Both the position numbers and the translations under genes were made by a program. 64,000 bases of DNA from Candidatus Aminicenantes bacterium (GTDB taxonomy: Bacteria > Acidobacteriota > Aminicenantia > Aminicenantales > CALLJL01): assembly GCA_037441905.1 (NCBI GenBank), contig JBBIRF010000007.1, positions 17,219 through 81,218 on the forward strand, written 5' to 3'. The notes below the pieces were generated by a model, which was given only the letters and a program-made list of their open reading frames with translations, was not told the DNA's origin and made no database searches. Of the stretch, positions 27,337 to 51,988 are shown one piece after another; position 1 is the stretch's first letter; the number at the start of each line of letters is the position of its first letter.

Positions 27337-29139
27337 CTACCCGGCCGGTGCCAAATCTTCAATGTTTAAGACAACCGTTTCCTCGCCCCAAAACCGCGAA
27401 AACCCCAACGAAGCGGCTACATTTAAACAGGCTCCCGGGCTTATCTCAGAAGCGAGACCCGGGTTTTCCCAGACGATGGCCTCAAAAACCCGGCCGTCTT
27501 GCTCGACTTTCAGTTTAAACGACCTCTCCTGGATAAACTGAGGGGGCGAGACTACCCTCAGCTGAGGGAATAGGAATAGCGGCCTGGGGTTCCCCGGGCC
27601 AAAAGGAGGGAGAAGGGAGTACAGGTCGAGAAAAGAGGGAGTTATCTCCTTAAGGCGGAGAGGGCTGTCGATAATCAGCGTCGGGGTTAAATCTTCCTCG
27701 GTTAACCAGGTCATGGCTAAGGAGTTGAACCTGGTTTTCAGTTCGTCCATTTTTGGCCGCTGGAGAACACAACCGGCGGCGTGGGGATGGCCGCCAAATT
27801 CTTCGAAGAGGTCGCGGCATTCTTGAAGCGCCTGAATCAGGGAAAATGAACTTATGCTTCTCCCCGAACCGTAGGCAAAATTATTTTCATAAGAGAAAAG
27901 AATAACCGGCCGATGATACCGTTCCTTTAAACGGGAAGCAACAATCCCGATAATTCCCCGGTGCCAATCTTCGCACCCGAGAATTAGCGCCCGGTACTTT
28001 CGGTGCCAGCCGGCCTCCTGAATGCGGGTTATGGCCTGATTCAAGATTCTCTCTTCCATTTGTTGACGTTCGGAATTAAGCCGGTTCAGGCGACCGCAGA
28101 TAGAGGCGGCTTCTTCGGCTGAATCAGTCAAAAAAAGCCGGACCGCGAGGTCAGCCGATTCAACTCTGCCAGCCGCGTTTACCCTGGGACCCAACCGGAA
28201 ACCAATATCCCATTCGTTTACTCGGCTCCCATTAAGTCCACAGGAAGCCAGCAAATTCTTGAGCCCGAGATTCCTGGTTTCGCTCAGGGTTTTTAAACCG
28301 TGACGCACAAGAAGCCGGTTCTCTCCGATGAGCGGAACAACGTCGGCGACCGTCCCGATGGCCACAAGTTTGGTGTAATGAGGGACGAGACCTTGTCGGC
28401 CAGTCTTTTCCAAAAAAGCCTGAATCACTTTAAAGGCAACTCCCACTCCCGCCAGGTAGCGAAACGGATAGCCGGATGAGCTCAAGACAGGATTAATGAT
28501 GGCCAGGGCTTCTGGCCTTTCTTCCCCCGGCTGGTGATGGTCGGTAATAATCACGTCGATGCCTGCCTCGTTGGCCAGATGAACAAAACGGTTGGCTTTA
28601 ATCCCACAATCTACTGTAATCACCAGCCTGGCTCCCCGCTTTTTGATTATGTCAAGGTGCGCCTCCTTAATTCCATAACCTTCTTTTAGCCTGTCCGGGA
28701 TGTAATAATCGACGTCGGCTCCCGCTGAACTCAAGGCTCGATAAAGCATCACCAGGGCTAAGATTCCGTCAGCATCATAGTCCCCGAAAATTAAAATCTT
28801 CTCCCTGTTGGCAATGGCCTGGCTTAACCTTTCCAGGCAACGGTTCATTTCGGAAAAAAGGAAGGGTGACGGAACATCAGCCAAAGACCCGTAAAGGAAA
28901 ACATCAGCCTCTTCAGGGTGGTGCAAACCCCGGTTGGCCAGGACGCGGGCAATCGCCGGCGGGAGATTAGCCTTCTCGGCCAATTGGGCCGAAACAGCCG
29001 AATTATTCAGGAAGAGCCATTTTGCCAGAAAGCCACGCATGGTTCCATAGTACACAAAATCAGGGGTCGGCTCAATCAAGGGGGTAAAATAAACCAAAAC
29101 CAGAGGTAATCGAGATAAAACCTGATAACTTAGTTTCAT
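27337..29139 (-). CDS. recJ: single-stranded-DNA-specific exonuclease RecJ
   Basis: DHH family motifs (FGDYDADG, ITDHH) and a DHHA1 domain. Confidence 0.85.
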   Translation of the reverse strand: MKLSYQVLSRLPLVLVYFTPLIEPTPDFVYYGTMRGFLAKWLFLNNSAVSAQLAEKANLPPAIARVLANRGLHHPEEADVFLYGSLADVPSPFLFSEMNRCLERLSQAIANREKILIFGDYDADGILALVMLYRALSSAGADVDYYIPDRLKEGYGIKEAHLDIIKKRGARLVITVDCGIKANRFVHLANEAGIDVIITDHHQPGEERPEALAIINPVLSSSGYPFRYLAGVGVAFKVIQAFLEKTGRQGLVPHYTKLVAIGTVADVVPLIGENRLLVRHGLKTLSETRNLGLKNLLASCGLNGSRVNEWDIGFRLGPRVNAAGRVESADLAVRLFLTDSAEEAASICGRLNRLNSERQQMEERILNQAITRIQEAGWHRKYRALILGCEDWHRGIIGIVASRLKERYHRPVILFSYENNFAYGSGRSISSFSLIQALQECRDLFEEFGGHPHAAGCVLQRPKMDELKTRFNSLAMTWLTEEDLTPTLIIDSPLRLKEITPSFLDLYSLLPPFGPGNPRPLFLFPQLRVVSPPQFIQERSFKLKVEQDGRVFEAIVWENPGLASEISPGACLNVAASLGFSRFWGEETVVLNIEDLAPAG

Positions 29140-29698
29140 TAAGCCAGGCTTACTCTAATACAGGGCATTGACAAGCCTTTTTTGTCGGGATTTATATTTT
29201 TGAGCAAAGGTTGACAGGGATGCGGCAAGTCTTGTTTATTAGCCGAAAGATGTTGGTAAATGAATTATACTTCGCGCCCAAATTTTTGGCTCTTTAACTT
29301 CAATATCTTTATCTCTATAAATTCAATTGCCGGCTGAACTCCCTTCCTGTTGGGCTTCCAGCGGACAAGACAGATCCCAATCCCCCAGATTATGACGCTG
29401 CTGTCTAAAATTCCGGGATTTATACTCAAACTCAACCTTACCTTTGTCTCTGCTTTACCGGTTTTCCTATAGGCAATACAGTCGGGAAAACTGGGTTTAA
29501 TTTAATCTATTCCAATTAGCCAAACCAAATGCGATCATACTATAAATAACGTTCGCCCAAGCCGGATGAATGATTCGTGGTTATTGATAATTTATTTCTA
29601 TCGACTGAATACAGTAAAGATGCCATAAAATCAAACCTTTATAAAACCTTCCGTTTACTGTTAAATAGAGATATCAAGGTGCAAGAATAAGATAGGAG

Positions 29699-31168
29699 GT
29701 GTCTATGAGAAAAAAATATTTATGGCTATTTTTAATTTTTCTTTTCTTATTCTTGGTGGCTACCCGGCTTTCATATGCTCAAGAGAAAACGCCGGCTAAG
29801 GTCGACTACTCTGAAGCTCTCAGACTGATTGATGTTTGGCTTGAAGCTCAGCGCGATTACGAACGACTTCCCGGAATGTCTGCAGCCATCGTAGAAAACC
29901 AGGATGTAATCTTTGCCCGGGCCTACGGTCTTTCAGACCTTGAGAAAAAAGTGAAAGCCACTCCCGAAACAATTTACAGCATCTGCTCAATCTCCAAACT
30001 TTTTACATCCGTGGTCATCATGCAGCTCCGCGACGCCGGAAAACTCAGGCTTGACGATGAAGTAAGCGACCATCTTCCCTGGTTCAACATCAAGCAGCAG
30101 TATCCGGATAGCGGATCGATTACCATCCGTTCACTCCTCACTCATTCTTCCGGACTCCCGCGTGAGTCTGATTATCCTTACTGGAGCAAACCTGATTTTC
30201 ATTTTCCAACCAGAGAACAGCTCAAGGAAAAGCTGGCACAGCAAAAAACCCTCTATCCCCCGTCCACCTATTTTCAGTACAGCAACCTGGGAATTAGCTT
30301 GCTGGGAGAAATTGTGGCTGAGATCTCAGGAATGTCCTATGATGACTACGTCACTGAAAAAATCCTGAAACCCCTCGGCATGAAAGACACCCGCCCCTAC
30401 CTTCCCAAAGAACTCTGGCGGGGACAGCTGGCCACGGGCTACAGCTCATTAACTCGCGACGGAACAAGAGAGATGCTGCCATTTTTTCAGGCAGAAGGGA
30501 TCAAGCCAGCAGCCGGCTTTTCTTCAACCGTCCTGGATTTAGCAAAATTTGCTTCCTGGCAGTTCAGGCTTCTGGAAAAAGGCGGCGAAGAAATTCTCAA
30601 AGCTCCAACCCTTCGCGAAATGCACCGCGTCCACTGGATGGACCCCGACTGGAAGACTTCCTGGGGGCTGGGTTTTTCAGTCTATGAAATGGACGGAAAG
30701 ACCATCGTTGGACACGGAGGCTCCTGCCCTGGCTACCGAAGCACCCTGATGATTGACCCCGGCAAAAAACAGGCTTTTGTGGTAATGATAAACGCTTCTG
30801 GAACCGAGCCAGAAAAATATGCCAGGGGGATGAGAGAAATCTTGAAAAAGGCAGCTACCAAAAAAGAAGGCCCGACCCCGACCAGCGTAAATCTCGAAGA
30901 TTATGCCGGCTATTATGATGCTCAACCGTGGTGGGGAGAAACAGTAATTGTCCCCTGGCAGGGAAACTTAGCCATGGTCAGCCTTCCAGCCGACAATCCT
31001 GTCCAGGGGTTTACCCTTTTCAGGCACATCGGGGGAGACATTTTCCGGCGGATACGGGATGATGAAACACTGGGTGAAGAACTCGTATTTGAACGGGACA
31101 AATCCGGTAAAGTGATTCGCTTTATCCGGCACAGCAATTATTACCCGAAGATTAGACCTCTTAATTGA
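29699..31168 (+). CDS. secreted serine hydrolase of the beta-lactamase/PBP (class C-like) family
   Basis: Signal peptide. S-x-x-K active-site motif SISK. YxN-like motif (YSN). C-terminal lipocalin-like extension. Confidence 0.75.
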   Translation: MSMRKKYLWLFLIFLFLFLVATRLSYAQEKTPAKVDYSEALRLIDVWLEAQRDYERLPGMSAAIVENQDVIFARAYGLSDLEKKVKATPETIYSICSISKLFTSVVIMQLRDAGKLRLDDEVSDHLPWFNIKQQYPDSGSITIRSLLTHSSGLPRESDYPYWSKPDFHFPTREQLKEKLAQQKTLYPPSTYFQYSNLGISLLGEIVAEISGMSYDDYVTEKILKPLGMKDTRPYLPKELWRGQLATGYSSLTRDGTREMLPFFQAEGIKPAAGFSSTVLDLAKFASWQFRLLEKGGEEILKAPTLREMHRVHWMDPDWKTSWGLGFSVYEMDGKTIVGHGGSCPGYRSTLMIDPGKKQAFVVMINASGTEPEKYARGMREILKKAATKKEGPTPTSVNLEDYAGYYDAQPWWGETVIVPWQGNLAMVSLPADNPVQGFTLFRHIGGDIFRRIRDDETLGEELVFERDKSGKVIRFIRHSNYYPKIRPLN

Positions 31169-31273
31169 ACTTAATTGAACTACTGGAATACTTCCCGTCT
31201 CCTCATAGCCCTTAACTATCGTTTTCATGGATAAGATAGCCGTGCCTTCTAAATCTCATAACTGGGGCATATT

Positions 31274-31468
31274 TCATTTCACTGCAGGCTTCCTTCCTCC
31301 GTTTAAAAGTTGAAACAAGACTTTTAAGGGAAGGAGCCCTGCTCGCTCAAGTATTAACCTGATAAATCTCCTTATCTCTCCCGGCCCTTCATCAACCGCC
31401 GGACTACCGCTTGGTCGTTCCCAGATGCTGCCCTTAGACTGGATACTATGTCCTGACCTGAAAGAGGA
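31274..31468 (-). repeat. copy 1 of a conserved ~195-nt element (structured-RNA candidate or 66-aa basic mini-ORF), reverse orientation
   Basis: Gap-free alignment at about 65% identity to 51610-51804 on the opposite strand. Shared hairpin core GGGCTyCyTy..TTAAAAGTcttgtttcaACTTTTAA..GGAGGAAGGAAGCC. Confidence 0.6.
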
Positions 31469-31513
31469 CATCACGTTGACTTAGGCCAGGAGCAAACCTA
31501 TAATGGAGTCGCT

Positions 31514-32404
31514 GTGTTTTCGCGGCTCCGGACAACACTCGCCCGCACCCGCCAAGTCATTTGGGAAAAAGTTGAGCCCTTAAGACGCCAGGCGAAAATC
31601 ACCGAACAAACCCTGGAAGAGTTAGCCGAAGCCCTCATCCTGGCTGATGTCGGCGTGGCGACCACGGAAAAAATAATCGCCGGCGTTAAAAAGAAGCTAA
31701 CGACCGCGCCTGCGGCCGAACTCGAAAAGTGTCTGAAACAACAGCTCGTTGAGCTTCTCGGTGAATCTCCGGCGCCGCTCAACCTCGCCGTTTCTCCGGC
31801 TGTAGCAATGTTTGTCGGGGTTAACGGCGGCGGCAAGACAACCTCCCTGGCCAAACTCGCCTATTATCTCAAGAGTCAGGGCCGGCAAGTAATCATGGTC
31901 GCCGCCGATACTTTTCGCGCCGCGGCCCAGGAGCAGCTTCAGATCTGGAGCCGGCGGCTGGAAATCCCGCTCGTCCGCGGCCAGTACGGCGCCGACCCGG
32001 CAGCCGTTGTTTTCGACGCCATCCAGGCCCTCAAAGCAAGGGGAGCCCAGGCGCTCCTGGTTGATACGGCGGGTCGAGTCCATACCAACTCGAACCTGAT
32101 GGCTGAACTCGAGAAAATAAAAAGAATTATCTCCAGGGAAATCCCGGGAGCGCCTCATGAAATCCTTTTAGTCCTGGATGCGACGACCGGTCAGAACGCG
32201 CTTTCGCAGGCGAGAGAATTCATGAAGTTTTCGGGGATTACCGGCATCTTCCTTTCGAAACTCGACGGGACGGCCAAAGGAGGAAGCGCCGTCGCCATAA
32301 CTGCTGAGCTCAACCTGCCGATTAAGCTCGTCGGAATTGGCGAGACAGAAAAGGATTTGCTTATTTTTTCACCCGAGGAATTTGTCGACGCTCTCCTTTC
32401 ATGA
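31514..32404 (+). CDS. ftsY: signal recognition particle receptor FtsY (NG-domain-only short form)
   Basis: G1 motif GVNGGGKTTS and DTAGR. No acidic A domain. Confidence 0.85.
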   Translation: MFSRLRTTLARTRQVIWEKVEPLRRQAKITEQTLEELAEALILADVGVATTEKIIAGVKKKLTTAPAAELEKCLKQQLVELLGESPAPLNLAVSPAVAMFVGVNGGGKTTSLAKLAYYLKSQGRQVIMVAADTFRAAAQEQLQIWSRRLEIPLVRGQYGADPAAVVFDAIQALKARGAQALLVDTAGRVHTNSNLMAELEKIKRIISREIPGAPHEILLVLDATTGQNALSQAREFMKFSGITGIFLSKLDGTAKGGSAVAITAELNLPIKLVGIGETEKDLLIFSPEEFVDALLS

Positions 32405-50676: not shown

Positions 50677-51585
50677 TCAGCGGAAATAAATAAAAGAAAT
50701 CTGAACGCCGAGTTCTCGTTCGTCCTTTGAGTTCGGGTTTAGTTTTGCCGGGATAAAGGTTTTATCAGCCGTTACCACGAGCCGAAATTCGTCCCTGTCT
50801 CCGAGCATCTCCTTTTTGATATTGTATGTTTTTTCGAAAGCGCTTTCCGTCGGGACGAATTCTTCCAAGACTGTGTCGTTTATCTTAAATATAACTTTTT
50901 GACCCGGGACCGCCTCGAGGTTGACCCCGCCCCGGATAACCAGGGTAGCGTCCCGATGGGGGTTATCAATAACGCAGACAGCCTCTTTGGCCGTCCAGCG
51001 CCACTGTTTCAGGAAGGCGTTCGGGTCGATTTCAAGGTCATACCAGCCATTCTCGTAAATTATCTCGGGAGTATCAGGAGGCGGCGGGACAACGGTGAGC
51101 TTCTTAACCAGGACCTCGGACTTGGATTTTCCTGTCCGGTCGTAGGGGGAATAAAGGCCAACCACTAAACGCAGCGTTTCCTCACCTTTAAACTCGGGGT
51201 CAAACTCGTCGATGAACTTAGGAATATATATTCGTCTTACGTAGCTGTATTCTTTATCGGGCTCCCATTTGGAGGTGGGTACAGAAGGGACATGGTCATC
51301 CTGGAAAAGCAGGTTATTCCTGTGCCAGAAATGAACATAAACATTTAAATCATTTTCCAGGGGGGCAAAGTCCTTGGTGGTTTTCCATTTATACTGCATA
51401 TCGGTTAACAGGTTGTCGCTCAGGGTTTTTTCGGCAAAACCGACTGCGAGCTCCAACCCTTTTATCTCGACCTTTTTCTGACATGAACCTAAAGCCAAAA
51501 AGAGAGCTAAAATCATGCCGAATGATAACCAGCGCTTCATGACCAACCTCCGGCTAAAATCTTTTATTTTTTGATTATAAGGCAA
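50677..51585 (-). CDS. hypothetical lipoprotein
   Basis: Lipobox LALGSC after an internal Met (MKRWLSF is the probable start). Beta-rich. No recognisable family. Confidence 0.45.
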   Translation of the reverse strand: MPYNQKIKDFSRRLVMKRWLSFGMILALFLALGSCQKKVEIKGLELAVGFAEKTLSDNLLTDMQYKWKTTKDFAPLENDLNVYVHFWHRNNLLFQDDHVPSVPTSKWEPDKEYSYVRRIYIPKFIDEFDPEFKGEETLRLVVGLYSPYDRTGKSKSEVLVKKLTVVPPPPDTPEIIYENGWYDLEIDPNAFLKQWRWTAKEAVCVIDNPHRDATLVIRGGVNLEAVPGQKVIFKINDTVLEEFVPTESAFEKTYNIKKEMLGDRDEFRLVVTADKTFIPAKLNPNSKDERELGVQISFIYFR

Positions 51586-51609
51586 CCGGCGCTTATTTGT
51601 AAAGTGCGC

Positions 51610-51804
51610 CGCTCTTTTGGGTTAACTTATAGCACCCAGGGGAAGGGAAAGATATGGAAGCGGCGAGGTGGTCATCTGGCCATAGGTGTTGGGGCTGAAG
51701 AAGCAAGGGCTTTTACCAAATTAGTCCTTGAGCGAGCAGGGCTTCCTCTCTTAAAAATTTTGTTTCAACTTTTAAATGGAAGGAGGAAGCCCAAACCCAA
51801 ATGA
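51610..51804 (+). repeat. copy 2 of the conserved ~195-nt element (structured-RNA candidate or 66-aa basic mini-ORF), forward orientation
   Basis: Gap-free homology to the reverse complement of 31274-31468. 10-bp stem GGGCTTCCTC/GAGGAAGCCC enclosing an inner hairpin TTAAAAAT..ACTTTTAA. Preceded by a terminator-like hairpin at 51586-51620. Confidence 0.6.
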
Positions 51805-51988
51805 TAAGTATATATACCGCAGTTATAATGAGCTTGGCAAAGGTTTATGCTCCTTAAAAGGATTAGTGATACTTAGGTCGCTGGCGCTCAACCGAGGTCT
51901 GATGATAATAAGGCGGTCACTGATGAGCTGGCCTCAGCCACCATTTGCATCTGACTCCGGGGTAAGGTATAGTCCAGAAAGAGGTCAA

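Follow-up and report, generated by a model that had tools for sequence, protein, structure and literature searches.

Two inverted intergenic repeats of a Candidatus Aminicenantes contig as probable relics of a distantly IS481-like insertion sequence that lies next to host promoters

Introduction

The insertion sequences (IS) of the IS481 family, such as IS481 of Bordetella pertussis, are elements of about 1.3 kb with imperfect terminal inverted repeats and a single long transposase open reading frame (ORF), which has an N-terminal helix-turn-helix (HTH) and an rve/DDE core; the target of IS481 is NCTAGN. In IS10 and IS50, transposase translation is subject to fold-back inhibition, in which leader structures of the transposase mRNAs sequester the ribosome-binding site (RBS). 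In eukaryotes, Ty3 and Ty1 insert at or upstream of Pol III promoters. Deletion of an IS can leave solo ends, relics that keep one inverted repeat and adjoining sequence, have no transposase and show frameshifts and base decay. A fixed distance and orientation to a short host feature, in non-coding and presumably 'safe' DNA, is found for REP-targeting ISs and Tn7, for the IS1202-group, whose elements abut XerCD sites (bioRxiv 10.1101/2022.12.17.520857), and for IS110/IS1111, which use guide RNAs (PMC11187229, PMC11208160).

Here we describe two intergenic repeats in the window, a 64,000-nt stretch of contig JBBIRF010000007.1 that the names on its FtsY and lipoprotein homologues place in Candidatus Aminicenantes. 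A sequence-only reading of this DNA had presented the repeats as either a novel structured RNA or a mini-protein of 66 aa, and had named a match to an IS end as the finding that would remove their novelty; such a match is what we found. Both copies are very likely truncated, decaying left-end relics of one IS family of Candidatus Aminicenantes: they are homologous to complete copies of that IS, are absent from close relatives and lie beside host promoters. Like the solo ends described above, each consists of one inverted repeat and adjoining sequence without a transposase, and we see no material difference between the window copies and solo IS ends left by deletion.

Results

The two copies form a genuine gap-free inverted pair, 31274-31474 on the minus strand against 51604-51804 on the plus strand, with 68.2% identity over 201 nt, and blastn between them returned 163 nt at 71.8% identity (E=6e-20). 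No third copy was detected in the window by blastn, and the 17-mer CTTGAGCGAGCAGGGCT has exactly 2 occurrences there, with 0.24 expected when up to three mismatches are allowed. The near-identical core of about 65 nt with its long hairpin and the 66-codon ORF are present in both copies, as first described, and the flanking genes that had been named (beta-lactamase family, FtsY with SRP54 domains, LpxK) were borne out. The neighbouring genes are the beta-lactamase-family gene, ftsY, ribD, a lipoprotein gene (287-aa product without a Pfam family), lpxK and a lipid A acyltransferase gene. Identity between the copies is about 82% in the hairpin core and 59% in the 5' parts, and the subfamily bases GAGCGAG and GTTTCAAC are common to both window copies and found in none of the metagenome copies considered below. 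The pair itself stands; its 3' limit does not, as homology extends beyond it, as far as 31188 for copy 1 and 51840 for copy 2. The ungapped alignment also proved not to be homologous throughout, and its final ~15 nt are non-homologous when set against the wider family.

A metagenome scan seeded with both ORF translations yielded 49 loci, in which an iterated nhmmer profile made 62 matches. Many of these matches are cut by a contig end and the breaks fall inside the IS, which is typical of a multi-copy repeat. Across the 49 loci, the window sequence corresponds to the left end of a 1282-bp IS. The left boundary of the IS copies is sharp, at TTCTTTCAGG in alignments that include the flanks, and rightward the sequence enters a gene beginning M(T/I)ENIYPTYYEL.... 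The main features of this IS are the following:

Intact IS: 28-nt left inverted repeat (IRL), ~185-nt leader, transposase gene, right inverted repeat (IRR)
L018 169-1450; also L023, L026, L043 and L027-30: complete 1282-bp copies
L018 343-1518: intact transposase ORF, 391 aa
L026 5174-6319: intact transposase ORF, 381 aa

Both ends and an intact 381-391-aa ORF occur together in L018 and L026; L023 and L027-30 carry both ends, the ORF being frameshifted in L027-30. Terminal inverted repeats bound the IS. The family IRL is TTCTTTCAGGTTAGGACATGGTATCCAG, and the IRR, given as its reverse complement, is GGTCATTGGCTGATACATGGTATCCAG in L018, L023, L026, L043 and L054, with a shared 13-nt core. In L027-30 the IRL consensus recurs, inverted and with 1 mismatch, as the 28-nt right repeat at 6284-6257. 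Four identical nucleotides (TTAT), a possible target-site duplication, stand on either side of the L018 copy, and the other 5 two-ended copies have no duplication; PMC11708052 reports many extant IS copies without a target-site duplication. Left-end-only relics are present in about half of the loci, and their break may lie anywhere from IS position ~50 to ~480.

The transposase is encoded by one ORF that matches the Pfam families HTH_28 (E=5.8e-14), HTH_29 and HTH_32, as well as rve_3 (27.7 bits against a cut-off of 26.5). The best NCBIfam model was NF033577, IS481 family (E=3.7e-44, profile positions 2-282 of 284), with a score of 151 bits that is under the model cut-off of 224, and the element was therefore filed as IS481-like and not as a certified member of the family. 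Annotated IS481-family transposases on plasmids are 30-35% identical to it. Defined here by anatomy alone, the parent appears to be an uncatalogued, distantly IS481-like IS that is abundant in Candidatus Aminicenantes.

Internally shortened forms were also seen among these loci. L054 carries two ~490-bp, internally deleted, MITE-like and non-autonomous derivatives that kept both ends:

L054 1850-2334: IS 2-125 joined to 915-1282
L054 5006-5497: IS 1-61 joined to 831-1282

The relics at L017 3700-4178 and L021 5006-5484 are both cut at IS position 479 and share the same downstream gene, and their left flanks cannot be aligned. They could be one orthologous relic with a fast-evolving flank or a product of recombination.

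In the window, comparison with the intact copies defines these remnants:

31188..31466, minus strand: IS remnant 1, left end, IS positions 2-287 of 1282 (blastn, nhmmer)
31439..31466, minus strand: IRL of remnant 1, CTCTTTCAGGTCAGGACATAGTATCCAG, matching the family IRL at 25/28 positions
31188..31282, minus strand: what remains of transposase codons 1 to ~32, with indels (alignment to intact copies)
51612..51840, plus strand: IS remnant 2, left end, about IS positions 1-227 (nhmmer, blastn)

Remnant 1 matches the intact IS of L018 (169-1450) at 68% over IS 2-287 by blastn, with an nhmmer E-value of 6.5e-52; its relic transposase start is the GTG at 31282-31280, and 20 nt separate its cut-off end from the 3' end of the beta-lactamase-family gene. 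For remnant 2, nhmmer gave E=8e-56 over 51611-51838 and blastn 72% over IS 32-227, and the IRL is heavily decayed. No transposase was detected in the window by tblastn with the intact transposase (best E=0.6), and a right-end motif scan of all loci gave no match in the window. Without a transposase and a second end, the window copies cannot be an autonomous IS, and with an IRL only they cannot be a MITE.

Close relatives do not carry the element at these sites. In L011 (FtsY 87% identical) and L012 (73%), recJ directly adjoins ftsY and the element is absent, and in L062-L065 (lipoprotein 85-94% identical) a different sequence lies between lpxK and the lipoprotein gene, with zero nhmmer matches to the element. 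The idea that the copies are the ends of a 20-kb composite transposon was discarded, as the genes between them are syntenic in relatives without the element. An integron attC site or gene cassette was also rejected, as no integrase is present and the copy is wrongly placed with respect to the lipoprotein gene.

Both sites show further differences between genomes. Window positions 29064-31473 have no counterpart in L011 and L012, in which the recJ-ftsY gap is about 100-300 nt, and an extra beta-lactamase-family gene (29699-31168, plus strand) lies inside this segment. It may be that the arrival of this gene and the truncation of relic 1 were one event. The divergent lpxK-lipoprotein intergenic region is variable as well (L062 3305-4001, L065 2962-3659, L063 3579-4001): two of these regions hold ~560 nt of unrelated sequence with a called ORF of 64 aa (L062) or 37 aa (L065), and another carries ~290 nt. 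Possibly this is a hot spot of insertion, located upstream of the same promoter.

The conserved core of ~65 nt is the stem-loop of the IS leader, located in the window as follows:

31287..31339, minus strand: long hairpin of remnant 1 (per-sequence folds, arm-by-arm pairing)
51739..51792, plus strand: long hairpin of remnant 2, GGGCTTCCTCT.../...GGAGGAAGCCC (folds, arm pairing)

All copies are predicted to form an 11-bp outer stem, GGGCTTCCNCC / GGNGGAAGCCC (-19 to -30 kcal/mol). The Shine-Dalgarno (SD) sequence of the transposase gene (GGAGG or GGTGG) lies in the 3' arm of this stem, and the transposase start codon follows 2-8 nt past the stem. The outer stem had been described as perfect in copy 2 and bulged by one nucleotide in copy 1; this holds for copy 2, with 11/11 positions paired (one G-U), while copy 1 has 2 mismatches. 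The inner A/T stem that had also been proposed is found in some subfamilies and not family-wide. Ten of the 11 outer-stem pairs are essentially invariant. Position 9 is T-A in 8 sequences, A-T in 2 and mismatched in 6, so covariation support is thin, and it is conservation and position that speak for the hairpin.

The long conserved hairpin, the location between genes and the lack of protein-database hits would also suit a free-standing structured small RNA gene present as two paralogous copies. We consider such a gene highly improbable, because whole-element folds are no better than those of shuffled sequences (z = -0.76 and -1.64), the one stem position with a compensatory switch across the family is often mismatched, and complete copies of the element continue into the transposase gene. 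Apart from the hairpin, RNAalifold of the two copies revealed no convincing shared structure for either strand, and ARAGORN found no tRNA or tmRNA. The Rfam comparison that had been proposed returned no family (Rfam 15; gathering thresholds for the whole window, E<=10 in the surroundings of each copy); around the copies there were sub-threshold chance hits, such as MIR6445 at 17 bits against 100. The DNA pattern GAGCGAGCAGGGCN{10,25}GTTTCAAC, which is too specific to the window's own subfamily, retrieved 10 loci from species-representative genomes, all of them chance matches to a 13-mer only. An opposite-strand G-U compatibility was dropped because it rests on two decayed copies.

The 66-codon ORFs of the window correspond to a reading frame of the IS leader:

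31274..31474, minus strand: mini-ORF of copy 1, decayed IS leader frame (ORF calls, family alignment)
51604..51804, plus strand: mini-ORF of copy 2, IS leader frame (ORF calls, family alignment)

Throughout the family this frame is open from IS nucleotide 1 or 2 for 62-64 codons, only evidently decayed copies break it, and its TGA overlaps the ATG or GTG of the transposase. ATG, GTG and TTG are all absent in frame within the IS, so that gene callers always take their start codon from flanking DNA. Copy 2 keeps the arrangement of intact copies, its stop TGA (51802-51804) overlapping the relic transposase ATG (51801-51803), and its GTG start is in host spacer DNA. In copy 1, host spacer DNA likewise supplies the GTG/ATG starts (31474-31469), and one inserted nucleotide close to the end takes the frame off the family stop. 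The starts that had been called homologous thus both fall in the host-derived spacer of 8-9 nt that separates the element from the host -35 box, and the 'common stop' and equal ORF length are a coincidence, copy 1 having indels near its end in the family alignment.

Between IS subfamilies the leader frame has a pN/pS of 0.24-0.50 (per-pair Fisher p 1e-2 to 8e-7), compared with about 0.65-2.8 in the other two frames. The result is unchanged when the codons used for retrieval are left out; two caveats are that retrieval was protein-guided and that the GLPP and RRKP motifs also encode stem arms. An exhaustive leader-peptide profile search of 1.84 billion representatives produced 16 true hits, called proteins of 35-91 aa, and where an N-terminus precedes the conserved peptide in these hits it is derived from the flank. 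Members more than 50% diverged retain SFRLGH..Q.K...W.RR..P.IP...EA..I..IL.KAGLPPL, and no long protein with the leader peptide at its C-terminus was seen in that search. Two proteins with RIGYATS.DG..WNK... repeats (P0246 and P0251; 718 and 1182 aa) matched the leader profile and were judged spurious, compositional matches. Pfam matched none of the leader peptides, at E<=0.01 for the window ORFs and at E<=10 for four peptides from the family, and the copy-1 peptide found nothing in a word-indexed protein search. The frame is very probably translated in active copies, judging from these substitution patterns.

It could be proposed that both window copies are functional genes, each for a basic protein of 66 aa, since both ORFs are open, the frame has the pN/pS given above across IS subfamilies and the peptide is recognisable in members more than 50% diverged. 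We judge this very unlikely. The ORFs start in non-homologous host spacer without an SD sequence, copy 1 is frameshifted against the family near its end and no Pfam family is matched. The substitutions between the copies are spread over codon positions, as had been noted (18/21/25 at positions 1/2/3), and the codon changes are 10 synonymous and 30 nonsynonymous. Of the mini-protein proposal, what stands is a frame of coding type across IS subfamilies, and what does not is an intact gene in the window: the coding signature belongs to the active IS copies and not to the window relics.

Some of the two-ended copies raise a question about how the two frames of the IS end and begin. In L018 (1424-1450), L023, L026, L043 and L054, which have the ...AATGACC-type right end, the transposase frame runs stopless to the right tip with 1 nt over. 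On paper, the transposase and leader frames would join across an IRR-IRL junction of a circle or tandem with a 1-, 4- or 7-nt spacer, and a full-length protein could then come only from an excised form of the IS. Other possibilities would be a non-canonical start codon or -1 slippage at GAAAAAG just 5' of the stem.

Immediately outside the tip of each remnant lies a promoter of the host:

31476..31504, plus strand: ftsY promoter TTGACT-17-TATAAT, 11/12 consensus match
51574..51603, minus strand: lipoprotein-gene promoter TTTACA-18-TATAAT, 11/12 match

The ftsY promoter is 9 nt from the IS tip, is directed away from the IS and is conserved in the IS-free L011 and L012. Its -10 box extends to 31504, and translation could begin no earlier than the GTG at 31514, a distance that would make the ftsY mRNA leaderless or nearly so; the gene length of 296 aa is also called in L011 and L012. 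The lipoprotein-gene promoter is 8 nt from the tip and also directed away from the IS, and it is conserved together with the adjoining 7-8 nt in the IS-free L062-L065. The 8-nt spacer of copy 2, CGGCGCAC, matches CGGCCGC of these relatives, and this spacer is therefore host DNA. The two window sites thus offer a direct comparison of a promoter before and after the insertion.

The same arrangement was found across the family. An outward TTGACA-like hexamer (at least 5/6) stands beside the IS tip in 39/43 distinct flanks, at an offset of 8 nt in 31 flanks and 9 nt in 6. A -10 box (TATAAT, at least 5/6, 16-18 nt beyond) accompanies it in 21/40, against 2.9 expected from shuffles (maximum 7 in 500); for comparison, such a box follows 6% of all 929 TTGAC sites in the loci and at most 18% of intergenic-like TTGAC sites. 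A long ORF starts 40-330 nt downstream on the promoter strand in 36/40, against 51% at random positions, which is a loose control. L027-30, whose right repeat is a copy of the left one, has TTGACA-18-TAGAAT in the right flank as well. Independent support for the -35 adjacency comes from mini-proteins called in other databases, whose N-termini derive from the flank: several diverged members have 'CQ' (TGTCAA) or 'SQ' (AGTCAA) three codons before SFRL. Left flanks are unrelated between loci, even for copies that are 90-97% identical inside the IS. Promoters that travel as part of the mobile unit were excluded, as the spacers of such copies are unrelated and the promoters pre-exist in IS-free relatives. 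A long target-site duplication as the source of the flanks was sought and none was found.

With both relics ending 8-9 nt from a -35 box, we considered that they might have been exapted as cis elements of the host promoters, either with the hairpin shielding ftsY and the lipoprotein gene from transcription that arrives from upstream or with the relic acting as a regulatory region ahead of the promoter. No part of the relics is better conserved than the hairpin core, which could hint at residual selection, and in intact copies the strand opposite the transposase has the hairpin followed by GCTTTTTCAAG, a terminator-like site facing the host promoter:

L018 295-308, minus strand: terminator-like site
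L026 5126-5139, minus strand: terminator-like site

However, the T-run is lost in both window copies, where GAGCGAG stands in place of GAAAAAG, and no intrinsic terminator-like site overlaps either copy on either strand. In relatives that lack the element, these genes are driven by the same promoters, and the lengths of relics elsewhere, from about 50 to 480 nt, are as random deletion predicts. Exaptation is, in our opinion, improbable, and we infer that the relics are inert and most likely have no function of their own today.

Discussion

As left-end relics of an IS, the two window copies have a simple history. All that is left of each would be the 230-280 nt nearest to the promoter, since the parent IS had inserted at 8-9 bp upstream of a host -35 box, and the inverted orientation of the copies would be due to the way in which the ftsY and lipoprotein-gene promoters face. 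The flank pattern of the family suggests promoter-targeted integration. We regard it as an evenly balanced proposition that the parent IS integrates 8-9 bp upstream of sigma-70-type -35 boxes in a specific orientation, back to back with the host gene, and combines this with a start-less leader frame and a stop-less transposase frame. Survival alone cannot produce the constant distance and orientation. The HTH of the transposase could recognise TTGAC, or promoter-bound RNA polymerase could be what is recognised. The excess of -10 boxes could mean that the whole promoter or bound polymerase is read or, equally, that copies beside real promoters survive better.

Although the element resembles the IS481 family in size, terminal repeats and transposase architecture, it differs in its 30-35% transposase identity, in a long conserved leader frame without an internal start codon, in a transposase ORF that is stopless at the right tip (...AATGACC-type copies) and in having no consistent target-site duplication. 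Its apparent target is the -35 box of a promoter, unlike the NCTAGN of IS481. It shares with IS1202-group elements, IS110/IS1111, REP-targeting ISs and Tn7 the fixed relation to a short host feature in non-coding DNA, but here that feature appears to be a sigma-70 promoter (TTGAC at 8-9 nt, with the -10 box enriched), and the transposase is of the rve/DDE type without an accessory targeting gene or an evident guide RNA. No report of a bacterial DDE IS that chooses a fixed-orientation site upstream of the -35 box was found in searchable full text, which leaves subscription journals mostly outside, and this element may have been described elsewhere. The closest functional analogues are Ty3 and Ty1, and a promoter-targeting IS would be a bacterial 'safe-haven' counterpart of these eukaryotic elements.

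The leader of the IS recalls those of IS10 and IS50, with a stable stem just upstream of the start codon and the transposase SD sequence in its 3' arm. In an active copy this stem should restrain translation of the transposase, by analogy with the RBS-sequestering structures of other ISs. Unlike in IS10 and IS50, the stem sits within a conserved upstream frame whose stop overlaps the transposase start (ATGA/GTGA), and translation of the leader could open the stem. The start-less leader frame overlapping an RBS-sequestering stem is, next to the choice of site, a second unexplained regulatory design of this family.

For the window, the result is a clean-up: both elements should be annotated as IS relics and not as a small RNA or a small protein. 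If promoter targeting is true, it would represent a new way for a transposon to spare its host and possibly a natural tool to mark or perturb promoters. Each copy of the IS would then flag a promoter and contribute to promoter annotation in an uncultured phylum.
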